Shown here: one piece after another, positions 8,101 to 61,862 of the stretch
Layout of the letters: each line of letters begins with the position of its first letter
How positions within the stretch are numbered: position 1 is the stretch's first letter
Assembly: GCA_905178155.1 (NCBI GenBank)
Contig: CAJINV010000001.1
Span: 3,029,675 to 3,093,674, forward strand
Reading direction: 5' to 3'
Length of the DNA stretch: 64,000 nt
DNA from: Amoebophrya sp. A120
Taxonomy: Eukaryota > Protista > Dinoflagellata
Translations under genes and position numbers: made by a program
The notes under the pieces: generated by a model
What the model was told of the DNA's origin: nothing
Databases searched by the model: none
What the model saw: the letters and a program-made list of their open reading frames with translations, nothing else

Positions 8101-11100
8101 TAGCGGACTTTTAGCGAAGCGGAGGTCATGGAGAGGTTATGGAAGTGTCAGAATCGAAATTGACAAAATCGAAAAATTTCTGATGCACAAAATCGATGTC
8201 AGTTCGAGCCTCAGTTTCCAAGTAGCGCGTGACAAATTTCGGGAGCACCCAAATCCAGTCTGTCATGCTGTATGGGCAAAGAAGACTGCTCCTGTCGTGC
8301 TACTCTGGCAGCACATTGTATACCCCTAAACAGGCTTGCAATCGGTCTCATTTGCCTGCTCCCCAATACAGGCCTTCGGTGCCCTACATTTTACGCATCA
8401 CAAATTTTTCGATTTTGTCGATTTCGATCCTGACACATCCATAGAGGTAGTCTTGGCCGTACTTTTTCATCTCCGCGATCTTTTCCGCCTGCGCCGCGAC
8501 TAAGTCCATCGCCATCTCGTATCCTGTGCAAAAGTATCGTACTCGTACTAATTGCGTTTATGCATCACAATTTTTTTCTTAAGGCAAATCCGCATTACAA
8601 ATTTAATTTGTAATGCTAAGCCAATTTGTTATGCAATTTATACTAGTACGATGCTTTTGCAATGCATATCTCGCGCGCTTTTGCAATGCATTCGAAGGTG
8701 AGCACCGCCTCCGCGAGCGGGGGGAACAGGTCGGCGAAACGGGTGCCGCCAAACCTGCAAGGGAAAGGGTAAGGGTTTGTGAAGGCATTAGCATTGCGAA
8801 ATCACTGCACAACCGCAACAACCTGTAAAAAGTTAAAGTTGTATCCAGCACGCAGCAGCACGTGATAAACGAAACTGTCCTGGGAGCTCACGATGGAGAA
8901 AAGATGAAATGAAAATGAAAATTATGTTGAAAATGGAAATTTAGTAATACTCTTGAATGACGTCTTTTCCCGCCTGACAGGCCCTCTCATTCACCATGGC
9001 GTCCTCGTGCGTTAGGTTTTTCAGCACTGCGCACTATCCTGTGCAAAAGTATCGCACTCGTACTGATTGCAAATATGCATGACCAATCTCCTTCCTGAGG
9101 TAAAACAGCATTACAAATTCGAATTTTCTTGTTGCCAAAATTTGTGATGCAATTTATACTAGTACGATACTTTTGCAATGCATACACACCAGGCCTGGTC
9201 GACGTACCTTTCGAAAATGTCTGCTTTGCAGAGAAACGACACCGCCCACAGGGCGCCGTCGCGCTGGCGCGGGTTTCCCGTGAGTAATCTTGGAATCAAC
9301 ACGTGGTAGAAGACCGGCGCAAACAGCGGCGCCACCTGGTTCAAGACCTCTGACAGGGAGTGCCCAGCGCCGGTTCGGTCGTTCAGCGCCTGATGCTGGT
9401 CGGCGTCATTGGACTCTAGTTTGCTTAGAAGCCACGGGAGAATTCTCGTTTGGAGGAGATCCGGGAGATGCTTGGAAAGCGTTCCAAAGGCCTTCGCGGC
9501 CTCGCGTTGAATTTCAAAGGTCGGGTCCACTGCGAGTTCTTCCAGCTGTGGAATTTTTTGAAATAACTGGCGTATCTTTTTCATGCTCATCAGCTTCATG
9601 ATTCTAGACCGTGTACGCAAAGTGAAAGAACTTGCAGCTTGGCTGTGTAGCAAGAATGAGCAACATGAATGGCAATGAGAAGGCAAAAAACTTCGTTCAA
9701 TCGCAGCTTACCGTTGGCAAGAGCGCGGGCAGGTAGCTCATCAAAACATCTGGGTGCTCGATCAGGATGACGCACGCGCCGACGATTTGGATGCCGTTTT
9801 TCTTCGCATCGTGCTATCGCAAGAAAAAAGTGTTACAGTTACACATTGTGTTGTAGGCCGAGCAAGGCAGACAAGCTCTGTCATGCCGGATATGCATAGG
9901 AGCCTCGTTGCATAGGTGTTTTCCTTTTCATTTCCCGTAGCAGGGTCTGGGTTTCTGCATTACAAGTTTTTTCGCTCATGCAGAGAAATTTGTGTTAGTG
10001 TTGCTGAATTCACTACAAATGTGTAACTGTAACACTTTTTTCGTGGGATACGTGCTGTCTCTCCTTCATGGCTCGGTGGACAATTGGGAAGAGCAGGGCG
10101 AAGGACGCTGCGTCGACGTAGTGGAGAAACGTGGTGTTCTATGCAAGAAAAAAACTGTCTAAGTTTCTTGAGGAATAGCATCACAAGTTTGGGTTTGCTC
10201 TGCACGACACAGAAAACCTGGCATGCGTACTTAGGAGCAGCTAGTACTTGAAAACACGTACGAAAATAGCCTCTGATGTATGTCCAGCATGACAAGTGTA
10301 TACAGTTTTGCATTTTCTGCAAGACAAAGTTACACTTACACAGTTTTTTTTCTTGGATATGTTCGCGATTTTGTACAGTGTCTCGTTTGCGAGCTTCATG
10401 TTGCCAAAATCGAGCAGGCAGGAAATCAACGCCGGGGCCATGGTTCGGATCTCCGGGCATGTGACAATCTCGCCGACGCGGGTCAACAGCTTTGTGCCCT
10501 GCTCTTTCAATTCACCGCGCACTTCCGAGACTGCCCCGCGCAGAACAGGGACGATTTGGGGCAAAAAACTCGCCATCTGCTTGGGACAGTGTTCGCGCAG
10601 AAGATCGAGAATGGTCCCGCAAAGATCAAGGGCGACAAGCTGTTGAAGTAATATATTTGTGATGCTACAGGGTCTGCTTCAGTGCAAAATAATTTTGGGA
10701 CTGGATTTGCTATACTACAATCAAAAACAAAGATAAACAGCCGAAAACCTCCTACCTTGACTTTCCATTTCGACCCTGGCGGCTTTTCAATCGCGCCGAG
10801 TATTACCGGCAAGAATGCTGGCAACGCGTTTCCCCGTCCCGACTGCAGCACTGCCTCCAACACCTTCGTGACTTGGGCCGCGAGCTTCCCTTCGTGCGAT
10901 AGAGCTAGCAAGTCCAGATATACGGTCGACATCAGCGACGTGCAAAACGCAAGCTGCTCACAGACACTAATCGCGTTCGGAATCGCGTGTGGGGGTTTTT
11001 TCGTGGCTAGTGCCGTATTTATCTTCGCCGCGCTCGCGAGCACCAGATCCTTTTCGGAAACGGACCGCGCCATGGGTCCCAGGGCTTCCAAGTCCTTCTT

Positions 11101-11529
11101 TGAGCCTGTGTCAAGGATCTTTTGGATCTTATCCACCACCTCCTGCAAGCCAGCCTCTATTACCACCGGCGCTGGTGCGGGTTTGGTCTTCCCATCTGGC
11201 AGATCGGGCGTGGCAGACGTACTGGACGCCGCCGTCGACGCCCCTTCCTTGGAAGACGGCGTACTTCCGTTCGCGAGAGCTGCGCCATTGGCCGCTCCGT
11301 CTCCTGTTGGAGCGGCGGGTGCGGCTGGTTTACTGGCTTCATCTGTCTGCACGAGCTTCAGACACGCTTTGTATTGCGGTCCGTCTTTCAACTTTGCAAT
11401 TTCGTCCTGCAGCCCCTGTCGCTGCCGGGCGAATTTCTTCCCGGACAAGGACCCGCATTGCTCCAGCTTGTCTTTAATCTGCCCTTCGATCTTCGCAACA
11501 TACTTGTGGCTGTCTTCCAAAGAAAGCAT
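5148..11529 (-). CDS. YEF3: Elongation factor 3-like ABC-F ATPase (GCN1-type HEAT repeats, 2 ABC domains, chromo-like insert), ~1502 aa, 11 exons
   Basis: Walker A GRNGAGKTT and GKNGAGKST; LSGGWRMR and FSAGQKSK signatures; LDEPTN twice; YEIRWENL chromo-like segment; HEAT segments such as TTFLHYVDAASFALLFPIVHRAM. GT-AG introns 5761-5916, 7674-7826, 8755-8950, 9546-9711, 10640-10755 plus 5 introners; spliced length 4509 nt is in frame. Confidence 0.85.
8138..8443. mobile_element. Introner/MITE family B (306 bp), non-canonical intron in EF3-like gene
   Basis: ~55-bp TIR TATGGA(A/T)GTGTCAG...; TSD GAGGT at 8133-8137 and 8444-8448; removal gives GQDYL|SMTSASLK. Confidence 0.92.
8520..8668. mobile_element. 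Introner/MITE family A (149 bp)
   Basis: TATCCTGTGCAAAAGTATCGTACT...AGTACGATGCTTTTGCAATGCATA; TSD TCTCG at 8515-8519 and 8669-8673; removal gives IAKARE|MAMDL. Confidence 0.92.
9035..9184. mobile_element. Introner/MITE family A (150 bp)
   Basis: Same TIRs as 8520; TSD CGCAC/CACAC with 1 mismatch at 9030-9034 and 9185-9189; removal gives DQAWC|AVLKNL. Confidence 0.88.
9815..10050. mobile_element. Introner/MITE family E (236 bp)
   Basis: TIR TATC..A.GAAAAAAGTGTTACAGTTACACATT; TSD CGTGC at 9810-9814 and 10051-10055; removal gives MKERQH|DAKKNG. Confidence 0.92.
10140..10359. mobile_element. Introner/MITE related to family E (220 bp)
   Basis: TIR TAT(G/C)CAAGAAAAAAA(A)CTGT; TSD TGTTC at 10135-10139 and 10360-10364; removal gives YKIAN|TTFLHY. 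Confidence 0.9.
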
Positions 11530-12305
11530 TTCAGTGGGTGGAAGCACCGGGAAATCGAGTTTGATTGAAGAACAAGTAGTCGTGCGTAAACAAATCAACA
11601 AACCGTGTACGACGTCCAGAAGAGCTTGTTGTCAATTTCTATTTCTAGTAGTGGGGCATAGCGAAGTTGCTTGCGTTGCAATGTAATTTTCACGTTTCCT
11701 CTGCTTGCTGCAAGAGGTGGAGCAAATGCGAAAAAAACTTTTTAAGTAGCTAAGTAGGTGAAGTCATGTTCAAATAACGGTAGAATTGAAGGTGGATGCT
11801 GGGTGTACAGGCGTGCAAAGTCAACGTCGAAGACTTCGGACCTTCTGGGAGCCGGCGGGATCCGATCACCTTCGGACGCATAAGCGATACCATGATCCGG
11901 TTCATCTTTTTCATTGTCTTCCTTCGTTCCAAATCCAGTCTGCAAAGTTGTAGCGAACTGGAACTGCTTCGTTGATCTTCGTTTTCATCATGCGCCCAAG
12001 ATGCAACGTAGGAGAGCAGATCTGCTTCTCTTGGGATCAGAAGTTTAAATCCATCCTAAAAAAATACTTGTCCACCCGAACACAAGAAAAATGCGATCTT
12101 GGAGCCTCTGACTTGGGGATGAAGACGTGTTCGCTTCATCTGTTGGCGTGGTACTTATCTCCTTGTGGTACCTCGCGATGCCCACATAGTCATAGAGCAG
12201 CAGGACACCCGCGGCCTGTAGTACTGCTTCGGAGTTCGAGTTCTTTCTCTTCGTATTTTCTTCAACCATATCCCATCTTGAGCAGTGATGCCCGATCTAT
12301 CACTA

Positions 12306-26102: not shown

Positions 26103-28980
26103 TCACGGAATGGGTAGCTGCGGCTCGGAACGGCTTCCCTCGCGCGCAGCTGCCATGGTTCTTTTCCAGTCTGCGAACCACTGGGGCACCCAGGCCAACT
26201 TGCGCGAGAAGCTGGACGGGTCAACGTATTCTCTTGACGTCACGACGTGGACCCGTCTTCCTTCCTCGGCGTCCCAGCGCCAGCCCCACCTACGCTTCAT
26301 CACTTGCATTTGTGTTGTTAAACCTGCATGGCCCCCCGAGCCCGACGGCAGCTCGCGCTCACGCAGCAGAACCCAAGTGAGTTTCCCATTGCTGAAGAAT
26401 CCGGTCGTGGCCCGAGTAGCTGGAATGGGCTTGAATCCCTCCGCCCTGGGAACGTCCGAGAAGTACTTAGCTGCATCATCCGTGTCTTCGAAGCACCAGG
26501 CCTTCTTTTGCACCACATCCACAATCAGCAACAGCCTGTTCGCATTTTATCAAAACGAAAAATATCCCCTCCCCATATCAAAACGGAAATCTGTGATGCG
26601 GAATTTCTGTACACAAATCAAATCTGTCTTGCAGTAGAGCAATGCACGCAGATCGCAAGCCTAGACAGGGGCCTCTTGCTGTAGGCGCCTAGCATGGCAG
26701 ACGTCTGCCCTGTAGGCCCTACAGCATTACAAATCGCCTACATAACGCGGGGGACAGCCTAAAGTTGCCTTCTTGCATGACAAACCGGATTTGTGGTCAC
26801 AAATCTGCAACGCAAATTTCCAGGACGGTGCGTTTTCAATATGGGGAGGGGGGATTTTTCCTTACGATACATTTTTCAGAGCGTCCTGCGTGAAAGCGTC
26901 CGTATCATCGGGATCACACTGCATGATGTGTTCGTCTCTGGGAGGATGAGCACTTGCCCCTTGTTGTCCCCGTGGTGATCCATGTTCTTGCCCACCATGT
27001 TGCGGTTGCGGTCGCGGCGACGGCGGGCGCTGCGCAGCGCTTGCTGGCCGCCCCGCATGATGTGCTTGTTGCGCCTCGTCTTGTAGTAAAAACGAATGAT
27101 TTTCCCACTCCGATGAATCATCGTCGTGCAGTAAAGACGAATAATTTTCCCACTCCGAATCAGCTGAAGGCTGCAGAGACGACGAAACCCCAGTCGCAAT
27201 ATTACCTCCACCAACGCGAGAACCACCACCCCGACCACGGCTTTCACGATTCTGGCGTTCGACCGCGTGGCGGAAGGAGTGGCAGACTCGTGTGAAATCT
27301 GCCGGCAGCCGTTCGTCGAGCACCTCGATTTGGTCGAGCTGCGTGTCGATGAAGTCCGCGTTATGGAACTGTCAGGATTGAAATCGTCAAAGCTGAGATA
27401 GTTTGTCATGCATAAAATCCAAGGCATGAAGTGCCGGTCTTGCCGGGATGGCAAGTGAGGCAGATTGTGAGCCTATTTAGGGTTCGAAATAGAGCTGCTA
27501 AAAAAGTATGACAGAAGCAGTCCTCTGTGCCCAAACAGCATGACGAATTGGATTCCGGTTCTCCTATGATTTGTCATGCGCCGCTTGGAAATTGGGCTTC
27601 CAACTGGTATCCATTTTATGCATGGCAAACTATTTCAACTTTGACGATTTCAATCCTGACGCTTCCATACGCGTCGAGCAGCATGTAGTTCCACGGCTCC
27701 AGTGCGGTCTCCGCGGTCGGGTGGAGCCCGGCGCGCACAGCCTCCCGGACCCCAGCCTGGTCGAAAAAGCAGTCCACCCTCGCCTGCGAGAAGTCCACCA
27801 GCACCAAAGGTCGCGCGGTGATCGGCTGGTTGGTCAGCGGGTCCACCGGATTGCCGGCCTGGCAAGCGGGTTCGTACTGCCAAGAAGACCGACCTGAAGA
27901 AGGGAATAATGTTGATCCCCATGATGATGATCCTTGATCATGACCTTCCCCGAGGCCGCCGTGGTTGCTCATCAAGGTGCTTTGATGTTGATCAGCCAAA
28001 CCGCCGAATGGTTCCCCCGTCGAGGTCGCCTGTGGTTGCGCGACTTGTGCAGGAGGAGAAGCTGGACCAACATTCGTACTAGAGGACCGCCCGCTCCTCG
28101 TGCGACCACCCCGAGCAGGAGCTCCTGTAGTTGTGCTCCCGTGGCCTGCTGCTGCAGGTTTTGCGCGTGCAGGACGAGCCGGCTGTTGCGCTGGTCGTGG
28201 CTGCACTTGTTGCAGTCCTCCCGCTTCTGCTGCAGGGCCGCCGGTGAATTGATCGTAGGTCGGGTCTAGTAGTCTCAGCCTCTCCCTGCGCATGGCCTCG
28301 GGAGAACGTGCTCGATCTGGCAGTGTTAGGGCTCCTGAACCAGAGGATCGCGCAGCTGGCGTAGCTCCACCCCTTCTGGCCGCACGCGCAGCTGCTGCTG
28401 CCGAGTGAGTCCCTTGGTGAGGCGCTCCGCGGTGCTGACGCACCGGCCAACCGGCTTCTGCGAGCGCTGCGGGGGGTGGCGGCACTACGAAGTTATCGAG
28501 GCCCCCTCTTCGATGCAGTCCCCCGTATGTGTCCGAACGTCGTCGTTGTCCAGATGGTGTGCCAGAAGCTTTCGGAGCAGGCGCCGGTCGTCCTGGAGTG
28601 GGCGACGGAGATCTACTCGTTGGCTGTGACGAGCGGTTGTTCTGTGGCGACGACCACCACCAGTTCTGCCAGCGGCCCCAGCGATCTCGCCACCACTCCC
28701 CCACCCGCCAGCGCCACCCTTGCTGTGATGGATCAGCGTAGTGGTTGTGGTTGTATCCGCCTCCCGCGTTGCGCGGGAGGCGGGACGGTTCGGTTGTCGA
28801 GTCAGCTGCAACGGGCACAATCAAGTCGTTGCACCAGCAGCTGATGAAAGAGGTAGTGCTACAAACTGACGCAGCAACAAGAACTGCAGCTGACATCAGT
28901 TTGTATTGCCGGGCCGCAGCACTGCGCCGCACGTGGTCGCCTGAGCGGTTCTGGTTCATCTTCGCGTCGACCTTGTTCAT
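26103..28980 (-). CDS. Hypothetical protein with signal-like N-terminus and U-box-like segment (~745 aa), split by 2 introners
   Basis: Three ORFs fuse in frame after removing introners (LLDA|DFIDTQ; ALKN|ANRLLL); spliced length 2238 nt; DPLTNQPITARPLVLVD...FFDQAGVREAV. Confidence 0.7.
26548..26869. mobile_element. Introner/MITE family D (322 bp)
   Basis: TIR TAT......GAAAAAT...CCCCTCCCCATAT; TSD CATTT at 26543-26547 and 26870-26874. Confidence 0.92.
27086..27161. repeat. Coding tandem duplication, ~45-bp period
   Basis: GTAAA.ACGAAT.ATTTTCCCACTCCGA twice; encodes SEWENYSSLLHD / SEWENHSFLLQD. Confidence 0.8.
27362..27669. mobile_element. Introner/MITE family B (308 bp)
   Basis: ~57-bp TIR TATGGAA..GTCAGGATTGAAATCGTCAAAG; TSD CGCGT at 27357-27361 and 27670-27674. 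Confidence 0.92.
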
Positions 28981-30703
28981 TTTACACGTCGTGATCGGTC
29001 GTGGTCTCGATGTTCGGAGTCTATCGATCTGATGTTCTGTTCTCCACGTAAATAGATAGTATTTGTATTTCCTTTTCCGTATGTCGAAATATCCCTGGCG
29101 CTCCCCAAATTGTTGCCCGGAATGCTGTAGGTAGTTTCTGCAGCCGCGGTCCCGTTTATTGGAGTTCGATGTGATCCCAATCGATATGTGGTCTCATCTA
29201 TATTTCTTGTGCTGCGTGCCGTCGGCCTTTATTGCGCTTGCCATTGACGTCGCTGGAATTCTATGCGGCCCCGGGAGTTCGCGTTGTAGTTGTTTCTGAC
29301 AGGATGTTGGAATTTACTAAAGAATATTTCCGCCGCGCATTCTCTGCGACAACCCAACATGCACTTTCTGCTTGTGTGTTGTCTAAATGACGAGTGTTGT
29401 AAAAGTATTCTTCAGATTGTATTCCTCAATATCGAAACAATGTAAAAAGGAAATTTTGGTGTGTGAAACCAAAACTGTGGTAAGCGAATACACAATCTGC
29501 ACACTGAGTTTTTGTTTTTCTATATCACACAACCCTACATGATAAAATATCCTACTTCTTTACACGCACATAAGTACGCGCTAGGTGAAACAGGCTGTAG
29601 TTTTGAGGAAGCGATGGAATCATGAAAGAAAATCAACAGAGCAACGTCAAGAACAAGAATAGACAAGGAAAACTGAATCAGCAATCAGAAGCGGTTTTCG
29701 TACTTCTTCCTTTAGTTTGCAGGACCTTCAGCGCGTTAGCACGAGAAACGAAAATGAGAGATCTCCACGAAAAGAAGAAAAAGCGCAATAGCGTGTAAGT
29801 AGTACTATTTCAGGAATGATCTGCGGCGTCTTTTGGCATTTCTGAGCAGCCACATAGATAGTTGTCTTTAGTTTTCGTTTAGAAAATGCATATTTCGATC
29901 CAAGACCAAGGATCTCGCTCATCTTAATTACAATTACAGCTGGAGCTGCTTGACCTACTGCTGGAATGATCAACATGAAAGAACTCGGGATCTCCCTGCA
30001 CACAGATATTTCTTTCGGTGAACGAATCTTCACTTCAGGAAACCCAAGCAGAACCGTATCAGCGCGTGCATTTTCTCCTTCGTCATTGACACCGACTCGC
30101 ATTTCTTTTCTGCTTAGAAACCTTACCGTATATTTCCATCTTGCAGCGGGTTGAGTCAATTTATTCTCTGTCTTTCTGTGGTTAATCCAGAACCAAAGCA
30201 AACGAATACTGAACACTGAATACCACCAGAATGTAATGCAAATGTAGCAGAGTATTTATGTTCTTATTACAATTGGAAATTAGTAGTTTGACATGCAAAT
30301 AATCACATGACTCAAGGCCTGTGGAGTACAACATTGGGTCCATGGGAATAATGTTCATCTTCATGTTCTTTTACCATTGAATCTGTAATGCTGAGATTGG
30401 ATTTGTAATGCTATTTCTCGTCGTGTTCTTGTTTTGTTGTTGTCTTAAGATCTTCATAGCATTGGTCAATTTAGCATTCTGGATCGAGTGCTGAGCATTT
30501 TAGTTGGAGCATGAGCATATGCTGACACTTTCTTCAGTGTCAAGAATCATGATTTGGATTTTGTCTCGTAATCGCAACCCGTCGGGTGATCTTCTTTTAC
30601 TAGATGAGGGAGGAACGAGGAACAAATACAGCTAAAGGATCGATAAGAGCAAGTATCTGGTGCTGCGTGATCAAGAAAACGTCATGCGACGTACACTCCA
30701 ATT

Positions 30704-31899
30704 TTACTTCTTCGCCAGACCGCCAAGTGCGTTGGCCTTCCTGGTTTTTTCGAGCCAGGTTTCCACTCGTGGGATTTCTTGGTTTGGGTGACTCGTGGCG
30801 ATAGTGTGCACCAAGACACCTCTTTCCGCTTTCGAGTCCGGTAGCTGCGTGCGCATCTCGGGGTGTCGGTTGCGGATGCGCTTGCCGAAAAAGACGGAGT
30901 ATCAAATGTAAAAATGTCTGGGTCTGGAAGGATGCAAGATCTGTCATGCTTCTCTGGCATGACTGAAAAGTTTTGTGATGCGTATCCAAGAAGAGACCCT
31001 GGTGTTGCCTGTCATTCAAAACGCAGCTTGTCATGCGGAAAGCGCAACACTAAGTAGCGCAAATATTTCTCGTGCTTGGCTGTGCATTACAGAGAGTTCA
31101 CTCCTCACAACTCAGCATTACAAGTTTCCAGAGGACCCAGACATTTTTACATTTGATACGGAGAATTTTTGTTTCATTTTGATCACCGTGAGCTTGCCGA
31201 AATCCTGTTCGCGTATCAAGTGCAAAAATGTCTGGGTCTGGAAGAATGCAAGTTGAAGTTTGTCATGCTTGTCTCATATGACTCTTAAACTTGTCATGCA
31301 CATTACCCAAGAGCCCCATTTTTCTGTCATGCAGAAACGCAGTCCGTCATGCAGAATAGGCAACACCTCGAAGCTCAGAAACTTGTCATGCTGAGCCAGC
31401 ACTTGTGGCCTCTTCGTGATACGCCACCCAGCATAACAAGTTTCCAGACCCAGACATTTTTGCATTTGATATCGCGGTCGCGGCAGCAAGTCGAGGTAAG
31501 CTGCGCATTGTAGGCGTCCGGCGGCCCGAATTTTCTGAGCCAGTCCTGCAAGCTGTCCATCTTTGGCCCGAGGAAATCCTTGTCCCCCAGCTTTGGAACC
31601 GGTTCAGCGTCTTGCTCATCCGGAGGGGTCTTGTTATTTCCATCGGCATCTAGATGTTGCTCTCCCGCAACTTCGGCTGAAGGCGCTTGTTCTGGTGTGA
31701 TGCGAGTGCCGTACTTGTACTTTTTATTTTTGTACTCACGTTTCAAGTGCGGGTCGGTGCCGGGCTTGTGACGGAACACCATCTCTGCCTCTTCCTCGCG
31801 TACGCTGCCGTAGTGCGCCAACCAATCCTCGGGCTTTCGCATGGTTATACCCCGCTTCTGGAAGGCACCACTAGTCCACGTCTTGGGGAGGTAGGACAT
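30704..31899 (-). CDS. Hypothetical protein (222 aa), split by 2 introners
   Basis: Removing both elements gives CCRDRE|QDFGKLTVIKMKQKFS|VFFGKRIRNRHPEM...GGLAKK*; spliced length 669 nt. Confidence 0.75.
30900..31158. mobile_element. Introner/MITE family C (259 bp)
   Basis: TIR TATCAAATGTAAAAATGTCTGGGTC; TSD CGGAG at 30895-30899 and 31159-31163. Confidence 0.92.
31214..31471. mobile_element. Introner/MITE family C (258 bp)
   Basis: TIR TATCAA(G/A)TGCAAAAATGTCTGGGTCTGGAA; TSD TCGCG at 31209-31213 and 31472-31476. Confidence 0.92.
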
Positions 31900-32664: not shown

Positions 32665-35600
32665 TCATTTGTACTCCAAAAACACTCTCTGGAACGCGGG
32701 GTCGAAATTTCGGAGTTCGTTTTCCAAAATCTTGACTTTCTTCATCAACACGGGTTCGTTCCGCGCGACGAGATCCCGTTTCATCGTCATCCAATGCGCC
32801 ATCAAGCAGGCCTTGTCCTCCCGCACATTGGTCATGCCGTAACTGCAGGCGAACCCGGCGGGGGCCACGCCCTTCCGCGCATCCAGACTGACGGCTTTGT
32901 TCACGCGCGGCAGGGTCTCGTCGTTGTACCGGAATCCCGGGCCGTGCAGGGCTTTCCACTCTTTGTCGTGCGGATCGTTCACATTGTCGTCGCAGAAATC
33001 GATCATGTGATAGATCTCGTGGAAAAACGCGTTCTTCCGCCAGCCGCCCGGTGTCGACCAGTTCAGAAACACTTTTTTCGGCTTCTTCGGGCCTTGGTAG
33101 TAGGCCAAGCCGCCGCACGAAAAGCCGCCCATCTTCAGATCGTTCACCACGACTATCTCGTCCAGGCACTTTCGTTTCTTCAGAAACGAGCAGGGCACGC
33201 ACCGGAGCATGGACAGCAGGCTCGTCGGATCCGTTGGGGAGAGAAGCAGGTTCCGGTCGAACTGATCGAGCACTTTCCCCGCCATGATGCGTGCCTGTTT
33301 CGTGTCTTCCGGCGCCACGCCGTCCAACTTTAAGCGGATGCCGAACATGATCTCGAAACTCTTGATGCGGTCTTCCGGACTCATGGCCTCTATTCTGCTG
33401 ATCGGAAAGTGCGGGTCGGACTTGCACTCGTTCGGGTTGACTGGTGGGGGGCGGGGTGCGGGCTTCTGTGGCTGCTGTGCCGGTGGCTTCGCGGGGGAGG
33501 AAGATGAAGCACTAGCAGCTTTTTGTTGCTGCTGTAGTTGATTTTTTCTCCTCTGCTCCTCCTGAAATCGCCTTTCCAACTCAGCGACCCCTGCCTGATA
33601 TTTCCTCTCCTCCTCTTCCGCTCGCCTCTTTGCTTCCAGCGCTTTTTGTTGTTGCTGCTGCTGTAGTTGTTCTTGTTTTTTTTTCCTCGTCTGCTCCTCC
33701 TGATATTGCCTTTCTAGCTCAGCAATTTCCGCCTGATATTTCCTCTCCTCCTCTTCCGCTCGCCTTTTTGCTTCCAGCGCTTTTTGTTGTTGCTGCTGCT
33801 GTAGTTGTTTTTTTTGCTTCTGCTCCTCGTCATAAATCCTTTGCAGCTCAGCAATTTCCGCCTGATACTCCCTCTCCTCCTTTTCCGCTCGCCTCTTTGC
33901 TTCCAGCGCTTCTTGTTGCTGCTGCTGCTGCACTTGTTGTTTTTGCTTCTGCTCCTCGTCATAAATCCTTTGCAGCTCAGCGATCTCCGCCTGGTATTCC
34001 GCCTCCGCCTCGTCCTCCTTCCTCTTCCGTTCCAAATACTCTGCGATCTCCCGCTCATACTGCCTCCTCTCCTCCTCTTGCAACCTTTTTCTCGCTTCGG
34101 CCTGCTTGCGTCGCTGCGCCTCCCGCCCGGCCTCCGCCTGCTGGGCCTTTGCCTGCGCTTCCGCTTCCGCCGCGCGCTTGGCGTCCTCCCGCGCCTTCGC
34201 AATCCGCGCTTCACTGGCCCGGACCTCCGCTTCCGCCTTTTTCTTTGCCTCGGCGGCCACCTTCGCGGCGGCTTCCGCCTCTTTCTGCGCCGCCTCGGCG
34301 GCTTTTTTTTCCGCTTCCACGGCTTTCTTTTGGGCCTCCTCTGCGGCTTTTTTTTTCCTCTCCAACTCCGCTCGCGCTTTCTCGGCCGCCTCGCGCTTCG
34401 CTTTCGCCTCGGCCTCTCGTTTCGCCTTCTCCTCCGCCTCCTTCTTCGCTCGCTCCTCCGCCAGTTTCTTCATTTCTGCCGCCTCGGCCGCTGCCGCACC
34501 TGCGGGTGGAGCTGGACTCGCGGCAACCAACATCGCTCCAGCTCCTCCGAATGAATCATCATCGTCGTCGCCATCGAATAACCACGGCTCCACACCGGCG
34601 TCATCTGCGATGTCGTCGGGTAGTCCCTTCAGCATTTCTTCGAGGTTCGCGCCTTGGCACAATTGAAGGTCCCGCAGCGCCTGCAGCGCCTTGTCCGGAC
34701 GACCGAGCAGAATCGTGTCAAACTCCTGCCGCGTCAAGCTTTTCCCCGGGTCGGTTTTGTCCCGGTCCTTGATCATCGCCACAAGCATTCCCTCCGGGAA
34801 ACCCAGGCTGTCCTCGCGGTCCTTCAACTGCGCTATTACATCGTTCAGACACAGGGCTGAAGAGCTCTTCGAAGATGTAGATGCTCCAGGAGGAGCTCCA
34901 CCTTCTGGAACAACATCTTCAAAGGCGTTTTTGTTCACGGCCCAGACGTACAAGGCCGCCGCCTTCATCATTTGCAAAAAGTCGCGAACTTGCGTCAAGT
35001 TCAGGCTTCCCTTGTCCTCGTCGTCGAAGAATTTCAACACGTGGGGGGCGATATGCATTGCAAAAGTATCGCAGCACTCGTATAAATGCATTACAAATTT
35101 CCTCAGCATGAGAAACAGAAGCTGTGATGCGGATTTGCCTTAAGAGCAAGATTTGTAATGCAAGACTTGCATTTATACGAATACGATACTTTTGCACAGG
35201 ATAGGCGAGAGCCTCGCTCTGTCCCGCGTAGTACATCAGTTTCTTCAACTCGGCCTCGCCGTTCACCTCGCCATTTTATCCTGTGCAAAAGTATCGCACT
35301 CGTACTAATTGCAAATATGCATGGCAAATATGTTTCCTAGGGCAAAACAGCATTACAAATTCCACTTTCCTTCTTGCCAAAATATGTCATGCAATTTATA
35401 CTAATACGACTAGTAGTACGATACTTTTGCAGTGCATACATTTCCGTCCTCGTCAATAAGGTCCATCGCCTCGTTCAGTTCCGCGATTTCCCAGGGCTCC
35501 AACGCCACCCCGCCGACTCCGGAGATATCAAATGCAAAAATGTCTGGGTCTGGAAGATTTCTAGATTTGTCATGCATATTTTCCATGACCCGCGATGTCT

Positions 35601-36264
35601 GTGAGGCATGCCGTAGCATCACAGATTTTTCGATTGCTTTGTGATACCTCTACCGCATCAGAAACGCCCTCTCCGCGTAGCACAAAGTGGAGTCCTCTTG
35701 CTGGCCATGCAATACAAATTTTTTTAGAATCCAGACACAGCATCACAAGTTTAGAATGTTCCAGACCCAGACATATTTGCAATTCATAGGATAGCATCTC
35801 GAACAAGTTTTCGTACGTGATGGCGCCTTCGTGATACTATGCATTGCAAAAGTATCGTACTCGTACTAATTGCGTTTATGCATTACAAATCTCTTTATTA
35901 AGGCGAATCCGCATTACAAATTTAATTTGTAATGCTAAGTGAATTTGTAATGCAATTTATACTAGTACGATACTTTTGCACAGGATAGATACAAGTGTTC
36001 TGTGAAGGAAAGGAATTCACCCTCCAGGATCTCCGCGTTCGGGCCATAGTAGTTTTTCACGAACCCCTTCAACTCACTCGGCTTGCCCTGGTACGTCTTC
36101 CCGGTCTGGAGTTCCTCCAAATCGATGCCCAGAATTTCGCACGCGTTCTCAAGCTCGGAGCCCGTCAACTTGCCGTCGTGATTCTCGTCCATGGTGCGAA
36201 AAATGGCGGCGCCGACCTCAGGCGCCCACGGGAGACCAGCCTGCGCGCCGGAACCGGTCGGCAT
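32665..36264 (-). CDS. EF-hand + coiled-coil + HEXXH zinc-metallopeptidase-like protein (~950 aa), split by 4 introners
   Basis: EF loops DENHDGKLTGSE, DEDGNGEVNGEAE, DDEDKGSLNLTQ, DKTDPGKSLTRQE; HEIYH and YGMTNVREDKA; spliced length 2853 nt in frame. Confidence 0.82.
33530..34010. repeat. Coding tandem repeat (~3 units of ~130-140 bp)
   Basis: Repeated YQAEIAEL...QQQQQQKALEAKRRAEEEERK. Confidence 0.85.
35052..35203. mobile_element. Introner/MITE family A (152 bp), inverted relative to 8520
   Basis: TATGCATTGCAAAAG...CTTTTGCACAGGATA; TSD GGCGA at 35047-35051 and 35204-35208; removal gives SEALA|PHVLKF. Confidence 0.92.
35277..35438. mobile_element. Introner/MITE family A (162 bp)
   Basis: TATCCTGTGCAAAAG...CTTTTGCAGTGCATA; TSD CATTT at 35272-35276 and 35439-35443; interrupts EF loop DEDGN|GEVN. 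Confidence 0.92.
35526..35788. mobile_element. Introner/MITE family C (263 bp)
   Basis: Colinear with 60827-61089; TSD GGAGA/GGATA with 1 mismatch at 35521-35525 and 35789-35793; removal gives FEMLS|GVGG. Confidence 0.9.
35838..35987. mobile_element. Introner/MITE family A (150 bp), ends swapped relative to interior
   Basis: TSD GATAC at 35833-35837 and 35988-35992; removal gives EHLY|HEGAITY. Confidence 0.92.
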
Positions 36265-47729: not shown

Positions 47730-50700
47730 TCAGTAAAAGTGCATCCTCAAATCGCGCAGCGGTTTCGGGAAGTAACAGCCACTCGCGTTACAGTCCACCA
47801 CTCCATCGAGGAAATCTGTCAACAACATGCGCATTTCCGCGACGTCGAAAAACGGGAGCTGCTGTGCCAGGTTGTCGGCCGACATTCCCGGGCATTTGGA
47901 CAGCAAATTCCACACGCGCACTTGCAACACGTTCAGCAGATGCAGATTCAGCGACCCATCCACTTTCGTCCAGGCGCTTGGCGGGATGTACGTAAAGGGG
48001 AGGATCTCCAGGTTCAGGTTGGTCTCCTGGATGAATTTGTTTTTGCTGCACTTCTGGAGCACCTTGGTCGCAAGATCGCGGAGGAACTTTTCGTTGATCG
48101 CGGGGGCGCCATAGAGGCGGGCAAATCGACCCTTCACGTCCGGAACAAATTGCAACTTTGGTTTGTTTCGCTGAAGACCACTTTGCGGAGCGACCGTAGC
48201 TTGCTGTTGCTGCACGAGGACCTGGTCCTCCTGCAGGAGCTTACTCCCAGCTGCCCCGCCGCCAGACCCCAATCCTGACGGTATCGTTCGTTGCTGGCAG
48301 TACTTTTTTGCCAGGTGCGCCGGCACCGCGAAGAGGTAGCTGGAGTCGGCGACCAGCGTGCCGGGGAAAAAGCAGACGATGAGACGCAGCTTCTCCAAGT
48401 CCTCCAGCAGTTTGTCGTCGGAAAAGTCCATTTTTACCTGCGCCTCCCGGGCCTTCACCAACTGCACCAACCGCTTCGCGAGAACGGATTCGTTGGTCTC
48501 GCTCAGTTTCACTTCGTCGATCGCATCGTACTTTTCGTCTTCATCCGCAACAACAGAAGAAATGACCGAAGAACTAGACACAGCTGCTTGTCTCGTTTGT
48601 TGTTCCACTTTCCGACGCTTCCCGGCCGGTCCTTCTTCATCCACCTGTTGTTCTGATGCAGGCGAGGACTCTTCACTCGAAGCTGCCTGCAGTCTCTTCA
48701 TCGCCGCACCGGAACTACTAGCAAAGCGCGACCTTGCGACGCGCTGCACGAAGTCCAGTGGTGCGTTGTACGGATCCAATGCGTCGTGGATCTTACTCGT
48801 TGGCAAAACCCTCCGCATCCTCGCGACTGCGTCGAACACCGGGCGCCCGGTTTGCGCCTCTTCGTCCTTCAGTATCTGGTGGCAGAAAGACTCTTCGTGC
48901 TGCAGCCACAAGCTGTCGGACGCGTCCAGATCAAATTTTGTCGTGAAGTTTTTGTCGTGATAATCCAACTGTACCAGCTGTGGGAAGTCTTTGGTCGTTT
49001 GTAAATGCAGAGAAACGCCCTTCCCGATTTTCTTGATGCGGGACATCTTTTTTCCGCCAGGTAGTTTGTTTTCGTTACTTTGCAGCTGATGACCTGCTCC
49101 GCTTTTATTTTTATTTCCCGCAGCGAACTGCTCCTTCTCAAGATCCTCCTCGGCCGAAAAATCATCATCATCTGCCGAAGATTGGAAGTCCTCGTCTTCG
49201 TTTTCCTGTTCCGATTCATCTTCCGACGAGGCGGAATTTTCGTTATCACTGTCGGATGACCCTCCTGTCTCATTATCCTCGGCGTCTTTCTTTTTACCCT
49301 GTGGGTTACGTTCCCCTTCGACGTCAGAGCTGTCGCTATTACCGCTCTCTTCTTCATCCGAAGAGCCGTCTTCGCTGCTAGTACTGCTGCCATCATCCTG
49401 GTCGTCGCTGTCGTCCGCGCCATCTTCGCCGACATCCCTTGGGGCAATTGTTCCTGCGGCTATTGACCCGTCGCTTCCTTTCCTCGGCTTTTTGATATTC
49501 CCGGCAGCTGTAGTGGTACTTGGTACTTGCTCGTGGTTGTCTTCTCCTTCACTGCTGCTCTCTTCATCCTCATATAACCCCGTCTCGTCGTCCGAGCTGC
49601 TGTACGTTTCAAGCTCTTCGATCAACTCTTTCACCTTCTCCTTCTCCCAATAATCAACATCGAGCAACTCCGGTTGCGCATATGCCTGCTTAGAACTAAC
49701 TGCAGAAGCTGTTGGTGCAGCTGCTTTCGCCACCGCGGACGCTGAAGCAGCGTCTTTTTTTTTCATCTTCTTCGAAGCTGCTTTAGCTGCTTTGCCAGCT
49801 GCTTTTGGCAGCTGCGCGACCTTTATTTCCTCCTGCTGCTCTCCGGATGACTTACTAGCATTCCCACCTTCGCTTCCAGACGCCGAGGCGCTGCTGCTTC
49901 CAACGACCCCCGGGGACCCCCTTTTTGCCAACCTTTGGACGATCGCGCTTTGCTCGCTGAGCAGCACCTGCGCCACGCATTCCATGTACTCGCCGGAAAG
50001 TGACCCCTCAAAGTGGTCCACGGTTCCCGACGCTTCGAAATCGTCGCGCGCGAATCGGAAATGCGCGGAGAACCGAAGCAGGTCGGATCTTTTCCCGAAC
50101 AGCGTCAGGCGGCTCCGGTGCGACAGCATCCACTTAGGTCGATCGCCCAAATCTGGCGCGGCAGGTTGCACGAGGACAGAACTCGAGCGGGGAGCCTGTG
50201 GCACACCTGCGCCAGCACCCGTAGATGCCTGTTGCTGCATTTCCTTCGCCCGGGCTGCGGCGACGCCGCTCCGCTTGTTATTGCAAGGAAAAATCCCCCC
50301 TCCCCATATCAAAACGATATTTCTGATGCTGAATTTGGGTAAACAAATCAGCTCTGTATTGCAGAAAGGCACCGCAGCCAGATCCCCAGGCTAGGTAGAG
50401 GGGCGCATGGGTCTAGTTGCTCAGCATGGCAAACAGGTCACATTTAGGTCCAACAGCTTGACAAATCGCTTCCATAGTGGGGCAGAAGCTTCTGCCCTTG
50501 TCTTCTTGCAATACAAACGTGATTTGCGACCTCAAATCAGCAACACAAATTTTCGGAAACATACCTTTTCGATATGGGGAGGGGGGATTTTTCACTTTGA
50601 TACTTGTACTGCGTGACCCAGCCGCGCTTGGAGAAGGATTCCTGCACGGCTTCGATTATGGGGCTCTCAAACGTTACATTCTCAACTGTTACATGATTTG

Positions 50701-53700
50701 TCATCCAAAATGACCACGAGCCGCAAGACGATCAAGCCGCTTCGCATGACAAATTCTCGCAGGGCTAAATAGCACTAGAATCCGCACCAAATCTGTAATG
50801 CAAGACGCGCAGGGTTCTCCCTCTGACCTGTGCTATTCTTGCATTGCAATTTCATGTAACAGTTGAGAATGTAACGTTTGAGAACGCCATATCGATCATA
50901 TTCCGGTTGTACCCGAGCAGCGCGTCCCGCGCCGTCTTCGAGTTGTATTCGTGCAGAGGCATGCCCAGCAAAATCGATTTCAGGTGCCCAGCGCAGCTCG
51001 CGGCCTTCGCGTCGACCACCTGCACCGCACTGCAGTCGGAGCTCCACACCCCGAAGTAGTCGGCCAGCGTCAGCCGGTTTACCGCGTGCGTCGCGGAACA
51101 GTCGGCGACGACGTCCCGGACCTGCTTCGGGGGCAGATTGGTCATTTTCCCGAGCACGCACCACAAGACCGACTCGGTCGGCTGGAGCCGCGCGCCCTGC
51201 GACCCGATGTGCTTCGCGAGCGGGCCGCTCGCCAGGCTGCTCCCGTGCGCACCGACGCCTCCGGACACGACGGATCCGAACGTGCTCGTGGGCACGTTGC
51301 TGGCGCGGCCGGCCAGCGCGTACAGCCGCAGCCACTCCGCGATGGACTTCTGCTTTTTCAGTTTCTTCGTCTGCAGCTCCAACAAATCCTCGTGGCGCCG
51401 CATCAGGTTGTGGCCCGTTGTACCCGAAGATGATCCAGCAGACCGGTGTTTATTATTCCCCAGCAGCCGGCGCCGGCGGAACCGCACCGACCGGCCGTCC
51501 GGCAGCGTGAAGGGGACCTGCGGCTTCGGCTTCTGGTTTTGCTGCACCTGCTCCAAATACTCCGGCATTGTGTATTCCGCCTCGTCGGCGGGTAAGTCCA
51601 TGTTGTGCACCTTTTTGTAGTGGTCTATGATCCCGCGTTTCAAACTGAACATGTAGTTCGTCTTAACGTTGTTCTGCTGCACGACCGTGCCAGTGGCGGA
51701 GGGGACGGCAACCGCGAACGGAGCAGGAGGAAGCCCTGCAGTTGAGGAGGAACTAGAAGAGCCACCGACAACTGCAGAGGTATTGCTCCCAACTGGTTGC
51801 GCCAACAACTGTTGGTTCGCTGCACCAGCAACTCCTCCTGCTGCGCCGGTTCGCGCCAGGCCGTCGCAGATCGGGCAGCGGTAGCGGACTTCGCGAATGA
51901 ACCGAATGTCGAATTTGCGACTGGCATCCACCAAAGTCGCGTTCCGCTTCTCGATGTAGGACAGCACCCGCTCGGAATCCAGGCCGGTGGCGCTGACCAT
52001 CTGCAAGACCGAAGGGCTGCCGTGGGAGAGCAGGGGCAGTTCGGAGCTGTTCTGGTTCTCCCGCAACAGCTGCTCCACTCGGTCCTCCAGAATCTGCCGC
52101 TGGACGTGCGTGATGCGGAGCTCGTTGCTGTTCCACTGGTTCGGCTGGAACGCCCACGGAAGGCCGGGCAGTGCGTAATCTGTGAACGAGTGAAGAAAGT
52201 GAACAGTAGAGAAGCTCATGTCGAAGTTGTACATAGGATTGAAGAAGAACGAAACTGAAACACATATGCTTGTATTAACTAGGAATTGATGACAACCGAA
52301 AACTACGACTACCTCAAACTCTAAGTACCTCCTAGAATCAAGACACTATTCTACCGATCGCCTTCGCGCTGGCGTGTTTGTTGCGCTGCCGCCTGGTTGC
52401 TGCACTGGCGAAGGCTGTTCCAGCACCTTGCGCCACCTGATTCTCCTCCTCGTCGCCGGCATCGCCACCTTCGTCATCGAGAAACTCCTGGTCTTCCTCC
52501 ACCATGCGATTGAACGAGCTTTTTCTGCTCGACACGCGACCGTCTCCAAAGGGGTTCATACCACCGGCGACGTCTCCTTTTTCTCGCCTGGTCGCGAGCC
52601 CTGGGACCATGCCGATGCTGGCGTTTCGGTGGGCTTCCACCCACTGCAGACACTGGGACCGCAGCTGCCGCCAGTAGCTAGCGTGCCCGGCGGGTTGCGT
52701 GAAGTCGTAAGAAGAGGTCGGAATGGTTTTGTCCTCCGCTAGCTGCTTTTTCAGTTTTGCGTGGTCCAAAAGTGCTGGAACTACACTTCCTGTCGTTTCC
52801 ACCACAGCAAGAACTTCTCCCTCTAGAACTTGCTCGCCCTCTTCCTCCTCCGCCATATTAGAGTCTTTGGACAGTTTTCGCTTGTTGCCCTTCGCTCGTG
52901 CCACCGCCATCTTCATTTTCATGGGCTTGGTCGTTGCAGCAGCAGCAGGGGCGCCACTGCTGCTGGAGGCCGCTAGTTGCTGTATCCCCGCTGTTGATGT
53001 ACTACCAGCCACTTTCGTATGATTCTCCGCAACAGAAGTAGCACGACCAAACTCCTCACCGTCCGCCAGGTACTGATCTAAAATACTGCAAAACAGCCGC
53101 ACGGTCCCGGTATCGTGGATCCGGTAGCGGACCCGCATACTCTGCACGTTGCCCCGTGCGGCATCCTCCGCGTTGTCGTACGCGACCAAGCCCAGCTTGA
53201 TCAAGTGTTGCATCTGCTGTCGGAACTGCTGCACGTCCCGCTTCAGGTTCCGGGCCTGCATCGCCACGCAGGACTTCACGGGCATCTCCTTCATCCGGAC
53301 GGTGAAACGGGGCTCGGTGAAGGACGAGGAATGGTTCTTTTTGCTTGGCTTCATCTTGGTCGACGTCGTCTGCAGCTGCTCTACTTGTTGACCGTCTTGC
53401 TCGTTACTTTCACTTTTTCCGTTCGCTATAGCACGTGCCAGTTGCGCGTCAACTCCACCGTCGTCCGATAGCACCGACGACCCGGAGCCTGCGGGTGAGC
53501 TCGAGTCCGTCGCCAATGGATCCGGCTTGAATTTCCTCTTATCCAACTGCGCTGTCGCCTCTGCGGTGAGTTCCTGTGCCTTAACCGCAACTATCGCCGA
53601 GGCCTCTGTAGCTCCCCTGTCGACCGGTGCCAGCGCTGCGGCAACTTGCGCGCTGGCGCTGGAGAAGCTGAAGTCAATGTTGTTCATGGCCGCCGTCCCG

Positions 53701-59678: not shown

Positions 59679-61862
59679 TTACAACTCAACGTCGACAGCG
59701 GCCTCGTCCTCTCCCACATCCTGCTCCTCCTCGGTGCCAAAGAGGCCTTCCTCGCCCTCACCCTCTCCTTCCCCTTGTTCCGGATTGAAATCTTCGAAAT
59801 CGTCCTCTTCTTCCGGCTTTTCTTCGTCGTCCGCCCGGCGCCCGATGCGTTCCTTGCCGCCCTTCTTCGTGCCGTCATCTTCGCTCGCGGTCACCTTCTC
59901 CGCGCCGCCGCGGCTGGGTCTCTTGACCACCTTCGGCTTGGACGGGATCACGCGCACCTCGGGCCTCTTGTTCGCAACCTTCCAACTCTCCTCGCCGCCC
60001 GCAGCGCACTTTTCCAAAAACTGCCGCGGGGCGTCGCCTGTAGTCAATCGAGTTATTTTTGTTCAGCTGCACACTTAAGTAGTTAGCAGCTACGTCAAGC
60101 AAAAAGGACGCAGTCGCGCCTACAGGTTTCAAAGAAGTCACAATCCGCCGTCAATGTTTTGCAAAAAGAAGAATTGAACATTGATCACACACCAACAATT
60201 AACTTTCTTTTTACCTTCCCAGCTGTCCAGATACGCGATCCTGTACTTCTTGACCTTCTTGTTCTTCTCGTCCTTTTTCTCCTCCTCCTTTTTGCCGTCC
60301 TTACCGTCCTTGAAGGCTTTCTTTGCCTCGGCTCGCTTCTCTTCCTCCGTCTTTGCCTTTTCCTCCGCCTTCTCGTCTTCCTCCTCGTCGGGCTCTGGGC
60401 CGCCCGCTGTCGGCTCCTTCACCACGCACATAGCTGTGCCAAACTCGCTGTCTTCCTCCGGCGCCGGCAACGCCTTCACGAACTCTTCGTCCAGTTGGTT
60501 CACCTGTTAAAAAACATCAAAGGACAAGTTGTATACGTGAAAATTTGTCACGCTCATGGCGCATGAAGATGTAGATGTTGCGAGACAAATAAAGCACCAG
60601 ACCGCCGGATTTACGTCGAAGCACCAGCACACCGCCAGATCTAAGACAACATTTTTGCTGATGTTGACCAAGGCATAATGCATCTCGTCCTCTTCAATTT
60701 CTTTTTCTTTATACCTCCCAGAAGCTAGTGTCGACGGTAGCGATCTTGGTTTTCCTGTAATTCTTCACTTCCGGACTGAACACAGCGTGCATGTTGTTCA
60801 ATTTTGGGTGGGTTTTCCCGCCGAGCTATCAAATGCAAAAATGTCTGGGTCTGAAAGATTCTGAGACTTGTCATGCATGTTCTGCATGTCCCAGAATGTC
60901 TGTAATGCACGACCAGGCATCACAGATTTTTAGAGGGCTTCCTGATGCCTATTCCGCATTACAAATGCCCTCTCCACGTAGCACAGTCTGGGCTCCTCTT
61001 CCTGGTCATGCAATACAGATTTTTTTAGAGTCCAAAGATAGCATGACAAGTTTGGATCCTTCCAGACCCAGACATTTTTACATTTCATACGAGCAGCAGG
61101 AAGCTGCGCTTCTTTTTGATTTTGTCCCAGTCCTTCTTGTACACGATTTTGGTGATGCCGGTTTTCAGCATGGGCTTGATCTGCTTCGCGACGTATTCTG
61201 CGGACTGCAGGTAGTTCAGCTGCACTGGCGGATCCTCGTTCGCAAATACCGCCACAAAACCTTCGTTCTTCCCAAAGCTAAATCGCTCGGCGATGGTCTT
61301 GCCCGAGCTCATGGGCTTGAAGCAATTTGCGGTGATGAACTGCAGTATAAAGTTATTTGTCGTGTGTCGAATGATTATAGTGGTTGTGGTGCCGGTGAAT
61401 GTGCATGTCGTGTCATGATGACAGCAGAGCGGAAGGTTTCTTTTTTTTTGGGTACTTACGTACTTGCAGCACCATCTGAGGCAACTTCATCAATGCCGTC
61501 ATAAAGACAGTCGTGGTGCGGAATAAGCACAAGCACTAAATCTGAAACTACATTATCACACGAAGAAAGCGCTCGCGCGATGGTTAAATGACAATGAGTA
61601 CCTTGGTATCTCCAGCTTTTTTGTCCTTCTGTATCATTCGAGCCAGATCCACTACTACTTTTGGTGTTGGTGCGAGCTCCGTCTTCTCACCCGTGCAGTA
61701 GAGCACGTGTGGATCTCCACCGAAGAATGCTTCCTTCAGTTTTGCATCCTCACTGGCGACGTCTACGTAATGTACACCGGCATTCGCAACGTTTGCCACG
61801 CCCAGCAAGTTAGAAAGCATCAACCCGAACTGGAAAATACTGATGCCGCCGACAAGAAACAT
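59679..61862 (-). CDS. Putative ER-lumenal protein (signal peptide, acidic tail, C-terminal DVEL), ~421 aa, 5 exons
   Basis: GT-AG introns 61340-61601, 60504-60714, 60038-60214 and one introner; spliced length 1266 nt; hydrophobic N-terminus; KDEL-like end. Confidence 0.72.
60827..61089. mobile_element. Introner/MITE family C (263 bp)
   Basis: TSD CGAGC at 60822-60826 and 61090-61094; removal gives SFLLL|GGKTHP. Confidence 0.92.

Follow-up and report, generated by a model that had tools for sequence, protein, structure and literature searches.

The introners of Amoebophrya sp. A120 are described as elements with TAT ends, seven less conserved bases and at least three A, with 3–5-nt direct repeats, a hairpin, a mean length of about 240 nt, co-oriented genes and no transposase (PMC7789003, PMC12130899). 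PMC7789003 leaves open how such introners move and how they are removed without GT-AG borders, U1 or a known transposase; U1 itself was not detected in A120. In PMC12130899 the entry for most A120 families is "TIR DNA, unknown" (TIR, terminal inverted repeat); none is classed as hAT in 33 of the 58 rows, the label hAT5 occurs in a table, and family 38 is filed in the supplement as Ginger with "5-bp TSD, TA/TA termini" (TSD, target site duplication). In other systems, Hermes BED domains bind rigidly phased subterminal sites (PMC10368747) and Muta1 binds its subterminal repeats (PMC5499845). Here a 64-kb stretch of A120 (contig CAJINV010000001.1, positions 3,029,675 to 3,093,674; hereafter the window, at its full length of 64,000 nucleotides) is analysed together with a larger sample of related loci, and its introner elements are found to carry arrays of a short internal word, GCA(T/A)BACARRT. 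The motif is real, constrained and universal and has a spacing code, in a class of mobile introns that was already known. Neither motif nor spacing is described in the searched literature, including the text (logos S19–S25 aside) of PMC7789003, PMC12130899, PMC11282704 and PMC12005148, and the published text on A120 introners gives no internal shared motif, spacing code, 5-bp TSD fixed across all families or three-part end.

The elements belong to the A120-type introners on each of the four features tested, which are TAT with seven variable bases and an A-run, a direct repeat (here 5 bp), removal without GT-AG borders (five elements, by length sum), and many copies with no transposase inside. 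Two element searches were made, one for TAT...ATA with flanking direct repeats and the other for inverted repeats of any kind bounded by a 5-bp direct repeat. They recover from the window 16 TAT...ATA elements of 149–324 nt, 3,757 bases in total, which form six groups (A to F) by end sequence; the TSD is a perfect 5 bp in 14 of them and agrees at four of five bases in 2. All 16 lie in predicted exons of genes that are all on the minus strand, as given by a rough gene model, which is small and purpose-built, had some of the introns it recovers in its training set and misplaces one RNA-shown intron. Depth over the elements is hundreds to thousands of times that of the flanks.

The word GCATNACA is matched 54 times in the window, against 7.8 expected and a maximum of 14 among 100 shuffles. 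Inside elements lie 46 of these matches, distributed over 15 of the 16 elements, while shuffling of each element (1,000 shuffles) yields a mean of 1.17 and a maximum of 7; GC-matched non-element DNA of the window has 4 matches in 20,250 bases, against the 46 in 3,757. The first-pass annotation of this DNA had reported GCAT(T/C/G)ACA(A/G) as recurrent in the element families of the window and had asked for enrichment over composition-matched DNA, and both the recurrence and the enrichment are borne out. Its quoted examples are exact (TCTGTCATGC at element positions 41–50 of the element at 30900 and TTTGTCATGC at the same positions of the one at 27362), and the element at 50279 does carry only a variant. 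The remaining 8 window matches lie outside elements, all on the gene strand.

The larger sample consists of metagenome contigs (JACKZZ01...) that match the group-B end, at least 149 loci and 676 kb after removal of overlaps; the DNA surveyed in total is less than 1 Mb. These loci share the element families of the window at about 67–85% identity and no window exon, which points to different genomic sites of the same species or a close one. Of their 446 elements, six longer than 520 nt were excluded from the motif counts, and the remaining 440 make 456 with the 16 of the window, a set biased by its bait, since group B contributes 157 of the 456. The motif is present in 426 of the 440 locus elements, with 1,192 matches against 31 expected, and outside the bait family in 279 of 288. 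Its total of 1,238 matches compares with 12 for the reversed word and 12 for the complemented word. The fuller word is the 11-letter GCA(T/A)BACARRT, whose variable base is A in 1% of sites. Outside elements the motif is twofold enriched between genes (17 vs 8.5 expected) and near background in exons (25 vs 19).

A search independent of the TSD gave 467 elements, with 0, 1, 2, 3 and 4 mismatches over 5 bp in 349, 96, 16, 4 and 2 of them. Insertion makes a 5-bp duplication of target bases without preference, and the sixth flanking base matches in 98 of 369 elements, which is the chance level. Clustering by ends resulted in 53 clusters, 17 of them with more than one member, a number that overstates independence because many singletons are damaged members of larger families. 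The motif is kept in at least half of the members in 51 of the 53 clusters and is the best of all 4+3 gapped words, being present in 13 of the 13 clusters with at least three members. Two clusters can be aligned over their full length at 70%, and modules of 44–74 nt recur among others at 73–80%, largely motif pairs. The description of the families as otherwise unrelated is overstated.

An element end comprises TAT, C/G at position 4 (98%), a loose stretch to position 10, an A-run at 11–14 and a family-specific block at 15–30; A is found at positions 11–13 in 79–92% over the 53 clusters, and the ends of groups A and F deviate partly. The block 15–30 is identical at both ends of an element, and 2–7 motif copies lie behind it. 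By eye, this block usually has a short internal repeat of 5–7 nt, for example in groups B, C, D and E. The TIRs had been called otherwise dissimilar, which applies to the block but not to TAT, the C/G and the A-run, all of which are common property. Relative to the nearer end, the motif starts within 32 nt in 3 of 1,238 cases, at 33–52 nt in 585 and deeper in 650 (456 elements), and in the window 13 of the 16 elements have a motif start 34–53 nt from an end; "subterminal", as first proposed with about 40–52 nt, is too strong a word for this distribution. Motif orientation relative to the end varies between families. Inward-reading first sites (TGT.ATGC) cluster at 33–34 (101 ends) and 41–45 (174 ends), with 36 ends between, and the first sites of group B have the opposite orientation, at 34–35 and 43.

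Spacing was analysed with the pattern GCA[AT][CGT]ACA. Direct pairs prefer 31 nt (168 pairs, 20 clusters), 32 nt (69 pairs, 18 clusters) and 18 nt (41 pairs, 9 clusters), only 2 pairs being found at 22–29 nt; convergent pairs are spaced by 18, 36, 49 and 67 nt and divergent pairs by 14–15 and 46–47 nt. The spacers between sites differ from family to family while the spacing is kept. With one member taken per cluster, the 30–32 spacing occurs in 25.5 clusters, whereas the best 3-nt window in 200 random layouts reaches a mean of 13.7 and a maximum of 17.

Constraint on the word was estimated in two ways. In the alignments of eight families conservation is 0.89 at core bases, 0.71 in spacers and 0.70 at the variable base, a comparison that is partly circular because the sites were taken from the consensus; polarised private changes avoid this circularity. 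In the 293 elements with two close neighbours such changes affect 124 of 4,694 core bases (2.6%), 1,549 of 24,190 spacer bases (6.4%), 6.5% of variable bases, 2.0% of the A-run and 3.5% of the block 15–30. Between the two copies of the TSD 5.5% of bases differ (467 elements of the TSD-free search), which corresponds to 2.8–5.5% change since insertion, and as the private rate of the core is close to the post-insertion change, the data fit selection of sites during element movement and little afterwards. The core rate is 77 of 2,332 (3.3%) in exonic copies and 5 of 207 (2.4%) in non-exonic ones, the latter a small control of 15 copies. Between the closest pairs (11 at 94% or more) core and spacer change equally (15/276 vs 68/1,254), as under neutral decay, but many of the changes lead to the tolerated variant GCATGAGA.

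These values bear on the idea that the motif has no function and is left over from one ancestral element, having multiplied through internal duplication and fold-back. It would account for the short modules common to family consensus sequences, for the two clusters homologous end to end and for the partly palindromic interior, but not for a core that changes 2.4-fold less than spacers and variable base, for a spacing kept across unrelated spacers, or for the sharp motif boundary at position 33 with 3 of 1,238 sites nearer. The idea is already largely refuted and quite improbable.

The arrays are instead likely, with a rough probability of 0.55, to be the double-stranded DNA site of one shared mobilising protein, which would gather the element into a transposition complex. 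One protein would bind the word as an oligomer on double-stranded DNA and need two sites about three helical turns apart, two direct sites at this distance being the commonest footprint of the putative binding protein; it could be the transposase, through an accessory DNA-binding domain, or an obligatory partner. The families would have a deep common origin and have diverged everywhere except at the motif sites, and it would be the paired ends, not the motif, on which removal from RNA depends. A single factor is supported because the motif is kept in nearly all clusters, its core is constrained and its spacing is common over unrelated spacers, and so the earlier proposal that one protein services all families gains support as far as the sequence analysis reaches. 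That proposal had named either the transposase or an excision factor: the data lean to the side of DNA-level transposition, and an RNA excision factor, for which the intron enrichment speaks, is less probable.

The strand data agree with a site on DNA. Exonic position was found for 257 of the 295 elements placed on gene models, or of the 285 that were classed, exons making up 55% of bases, and in these 257 elements 359 sense and 355 antisense motif sites were counted; an exact sense site is absent in 45 of them, or in 37 with a relaxed pattern. Both insertion orientations occur in all 8 families tested, one being skewed (3:13, p 0.02). The variable base shows no excess partner match in 6 of 7 spacing classes, end stems contain 380 G-U against 350 A-C, and sense and antisense folding are equal in 120 elements (p 0.99). 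Absence of strand bias, almost no covariation and no branch-point position make a double-stranded DNA site the best reading.

Several results weigh against a single DNA-level factor, and some of them concern RNA. Convergent 18-nt pairs match at the variable base in 33 of 43 cases against 25.9 (3 of 1,000 shuffles, one of 21 tests), and of the motif bases that are paired in predicted folds, half have their partner in another motif copy. Furthermore, 71 predicted GT-AG introns without detectable element remains hold 13 motif sites against 2.1 expected, a 6-fold excess that lies above the intergenic one. Old decayed elements are an alternative source of these sites, because 32 of 103 predicted GT-AG introns retain element similarity (9 of the 32 end in ATAG). 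The intron excess is the main point for a possible, if rather unlikely, role of the motif as an excision mark, in which a host factor would bind it on DNA during transcription or, in either orientation, on folded RNA and recruit the splicing machinery. Such a mark would suit elements that have to be removed exactly, as follows from the length sum and from element length plus 5 being spread over the three frames (80/77/100), that are exonic beyond the exon share of bases, and of which 118 of 120 are predicted to fold into long rods whose ends are paired, in a genome where U1 went undetected (PMC7789003). Opposed to it are the lack of strand bias, the 37–45 of 257 exonic elements without a sense site, exonic copies that lose core bases no less often than the small non-exonic control, and 58 of the 71 clean introns without an exact site; the direct 31–32-nt spacing is not explicable by base pairing and counts against an RNA excision mark. 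An Rfam search gave no match, with no small nuclear RNA in the window.

The branch-point consensus is yUnAy, which GCAU-N-A-C resembles, and a branch point is found on the sense strand only, about 15–45 nt before the 3' splice site. A spliceosomal branch point, mirrored so that either orientation provides one, was considered after two RNA-supported GT-AG introns of the window were seen to carry GCATCACA 18 and 26 nt upstream of AG; the 8 non-element matches of the window, all on the gene strand, would suit it too. It failed on the 71 introns and the 257 elements: the 13 intron sites divide into 7 sense and 6 antisense ones and mostly lie well away from the 3' end, the nearest sense site lies 30–220 nt from the 3' end of exonic elements and is missing in 45 of 257, and the variable base is A in 1% only, so that this function is very improbable.

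The other adverse results concern the DNA side. A helical periodicity of 10.5 nt is weak (R at most 0.22, from a profile that had turned palindromic in the course of the run, for which reason strict patterns were used in later motif counts), and spacings of 18 and 36 nt are not whole helical turns. Wide limits apply to the timing argument, and an element with several sites has redundancy. Transposase families were found neither in 30 open reading frames (ORFs) of the window nor in the 230 longest of 292 locus ORFs, nor in 11 further ones (10 in inserts of longer copies, one in an intronic repeat of the window), and the absence of a transposase in A120 was taken by Farhat et al. to exclude general mobilisation by transposase (PMC7789003). 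Finally, the constraint on the block 15–30 (3.5% vs 6.4% in spacers) suggests more than one specificity. Several family-specific transposases could read this block while the motif binds a co-opted general host DNA-architecture protein, as do the enhancer-like IHF sites in prokaryotic elements. The block is indeed family-different, symmetric and constrained, and between subfamilies of two clusters it changes in concert at both ends (z 5.7 and 7.9); the motif also occurs in non-coding DNA outside elements. Many transposases would be needed, however, and none was found in the ORFs scanned or is reported in PMC7789003, while the motif is near background in exons and only twofold enriched between genes. 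This arrangement is improbable, and it overlaps the proposal of one shared protein, which allows a partner.

The elements appear to work like non-autonomous TIR elements with subterminal binding arrays. No autonomous element was found among TAT...ATA pairs up to 12 kb, and the long elements with the motif and a DDE transposase ORF that had been anticipated are missing from these pairs; of the six pairs over 500 nt, three are due to chance or merging and the other three are ordinary elements that carry inserts. In hAT elements an 8-bp TSD is usual, and the hAT5 subgroup has YA..TR ends and a 5-bp TSD; the 5 bp found here miss the 8-bp rule and fit this subgroup only. Like Hermes, Ac and Tol2, the elements combine a short TIR with phased subterminal repeats in both orientations, asymmetric between ends (PMC10368747). 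Unlike them, their sites are of 8–11 bp and not 4–6 bp, are common to families with different TIRs and fill the whole interior; an autonomous hAT partner, with BED, DDE and hAT dimerisation domains, was found in none of the window and locus ORFs scanned, and the hAT-type 5-bp excision footprint with a complemented junction base is not in excess in non-coding DNA (139 vs 133; double type 33 vs 36). The hAT label suggested earlier is unsupported by these results. MULE elements have long TSDs of 8–10 bp, and no MULE transposase was found in the ORFs scanned here. The Foldback MULE Muta1 is nevertheless alike in that subterminal sites strengthen transposase binding and excision is mostly precise with one TSD left (PMC5499845). 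IS3EU and GingerRoot fit equally by their TA..TA ends, differ by a 6-bp TSD against 5 bp here, and have no motif arrays in the descriptions seen (PMC10045372, PMC6839031), while Ginger2 makes a 4–5-bp TSD (PMC10045372) and Ginger ends are TG..CA, unlike those here; no ORF for the integrase-like transposase of this group was found, in a small sample. Euglenid nonconventional introns and the Fritillaria introns derived from miniature inverted-repeat transposable elements likewise have ends paired by inverted repeats, no GT-AG and TSD-like borders, and in the part of PMC11282704 that concerns them no internal spaced motif array is described. A general rule for classing non-autonomous elements is given in PMC4455052. 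In viral contigs the family-B end had no match, and the two-site pattern gave 15 rows (14 loci), none inside a TAT element.

Removal from transcripts was followed in one gene of the window, an eEF3/ABC-F-like gene with two ABC_tran domains and a chromo domain in Pfam (5152..11646, minus strand), which carries five elements and five GT-AG introns. A spliced-library contig of this gene is recorded with 4,450 bases, with pieces at 5324–5760, 5917–7672 and 10756–11646, and the gene minus five elements (one TSD each) and minus five GT-AG introns gives 4,450 bases exactly, with the spliced frame open for 1,478 codons. By length sum only, the five elements leave the mature RNA with one duplication each; a further alignment displays one GT-AG junction and no element junction, and two raw-read runs cover just a 40-base piece. 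They are 8138..8443 (group A, 306 nt, TSD GAGGT, motif at 8261(-) and 8395(+)), 8520..8668 (group B, 149 nt, TSD TCTCG, motif at 8562(+), 8592(+), 8609(-) and 8627(-)), 9035..9184 (group B, 150 nt, TSD CGCAC/CACAC, motif at 9108(+) and 9143(-)), 9815..10050 (group C, 236 nt, TSD CGTGC, motif at 9879(-) and 9957(+)) and 10140..10359 (second subtype of group C, 220 nt, TSD TGTTC, motif at 10178(+) and 10287(+)). Two of the minus-strand GT-AG introns have one motif copy each, 7674..7826 at 7700–7707, 26 nt before the intron end, and 10640..10755 at 10658–10665, 18 nt before it.

Group D includes 26548..26869 (322 nt, TSD CATTT, 3 motif sites) and 50279..50602 (324 nt, TSD CTTGT), the latter with motif variants and no exact copy, and the second group A element is 27362..27669 (308 nt, TSD CGCGT), with 2 sites, the first at element position 43. 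Group E is represented by 30900..31158 (259 nt, TSD CGGAG, 5 sites at 43, 75, 130, 185 and 216), 31214..31471 (258 nt, TSD TCGCG, 5 sites), 35526..35788 (263 nt, TSD GGAGA/GGATA, 3 sites) and 60827..61089 (263 nt, TSD CGAGC, 5 sites), whose predicted fold is a single long rod. Further group B elements are 35052..35203 (152 nt, TSD GGCGA, 3 sites) and 35277..35438 (162 nt, TSD CATTT, 2 sites), which lie in the same predicted gene in opposite orientation, and 35838..35987 (150 nt, TSD GATAC, 4 sites with 31-nt and 18-nt spacings); group F is 50657..50891 (235 nt, TSD TCGAT, 2 sites). Three intergenic motif copies at 30230–30411 have unrecognisable ends and are likely a decayed element. Other window genes, all on the minus strand, encode an FAA hydrolase, a dual-specificity phosphatase and a TFIIIC B-block protein (Pfam). 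A repeat at 12816–13880 inside the intron 12623–14065 has about 2–8 times the flanking depth, no TAT ends and no Pfam match.

Several longer or altered copies were seen in the loci. The element at L034 6184–6998 (815 nt) bears an insert and is near in size to A120 families 38 and 196 (PMC12130899); it has no integrase similarity, and the ORF of its insert has one look-alike without domains. At L049 821–1792 the insert has a 19-bp direct repeat spanning a motif site and an A-rich tail, and is retro-insertion-like. A GC-rich sequence of about 800 nt is nested in elements of two families (L009 505–1608, L062 8359–9506 and L019 from 2492); it begins each time a few bases after the GCAT of a motif-like site, has no protein-family match, and may be another mobile element with the motif as its target. 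A gene with a C-5 cytosine DNA methylase domain lies at L007 1–2672. Where the TSD gives G on both sides, the element reads G-TAT...ATA-G, that is GT...AG, as in predicted introns of L062 and L037, and such G-flanked elements may be a route from the non-canonical to the canonical intron.

The same DNA is rich in short duplications. In the 6-bp class, five bases are followed by one base and the same five bases, the junction base being the complement of the outer neighbour; the outer-complement rule holds in 57 cases, against 8 and 6, where models differ. This class is enriched five to eight times in non-coding DNA (197 vs 39 in 105 kb of the loci, 49 vs 6 in the window, for example at 24776, 25187, 25812, 29900, 30354, 37022 and 38318, with further cases in loci L001–L149) and about twofold in exons (222 vs about 109 after codon shuffling, with a flat control class), while the 3-bp class is 1.3-fold over an order-3 model (2,400 vs 1,832). 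No excess was found for 4- or 5-bp units and only a slight one for 7 bp. Indels between close element copies are of 3 nt in 66 and of 6 nt in 35 cases, against 8, 17 and 5 of 2, 4 and 5 nt, and those of 3 and 6 nt are mostly duplications with a complemented junction base (28/32 and 15/15). Hairpin-type excision footprints have the same shape (PMC5873905). Footprint-like events are thus frequent in this genome, but the data do not tie them to these elements, 3 or 6 bp standing against a 5-bp TSD under the standard model. It is conceivable, though doubtful, that one oligomeric protein reads the spacing code, moves tens of thousands of introns and licenses their GT-AG-free removal, and that machinery of this lineage also leaves 3- and 6-bp hairpin footprints all over the genome, which preserve the frame and drive fast protein evolution in the parasite.

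In summary, a universal constrained word with a spacing code would reduce many introner "families" to one system with one recognition rule. The motif could serve as bait for catching the machine and as a signature for finding the autonomous parent; it offers a mutational test of mobilisation against splicing, and by it decayed copies may be recognised, including those turned into GT-AG introns. Insertions of 3 and 6 bp leave the frame intact, and they may be relevant to the fast evolution of proteins that has been reported in these parasites.

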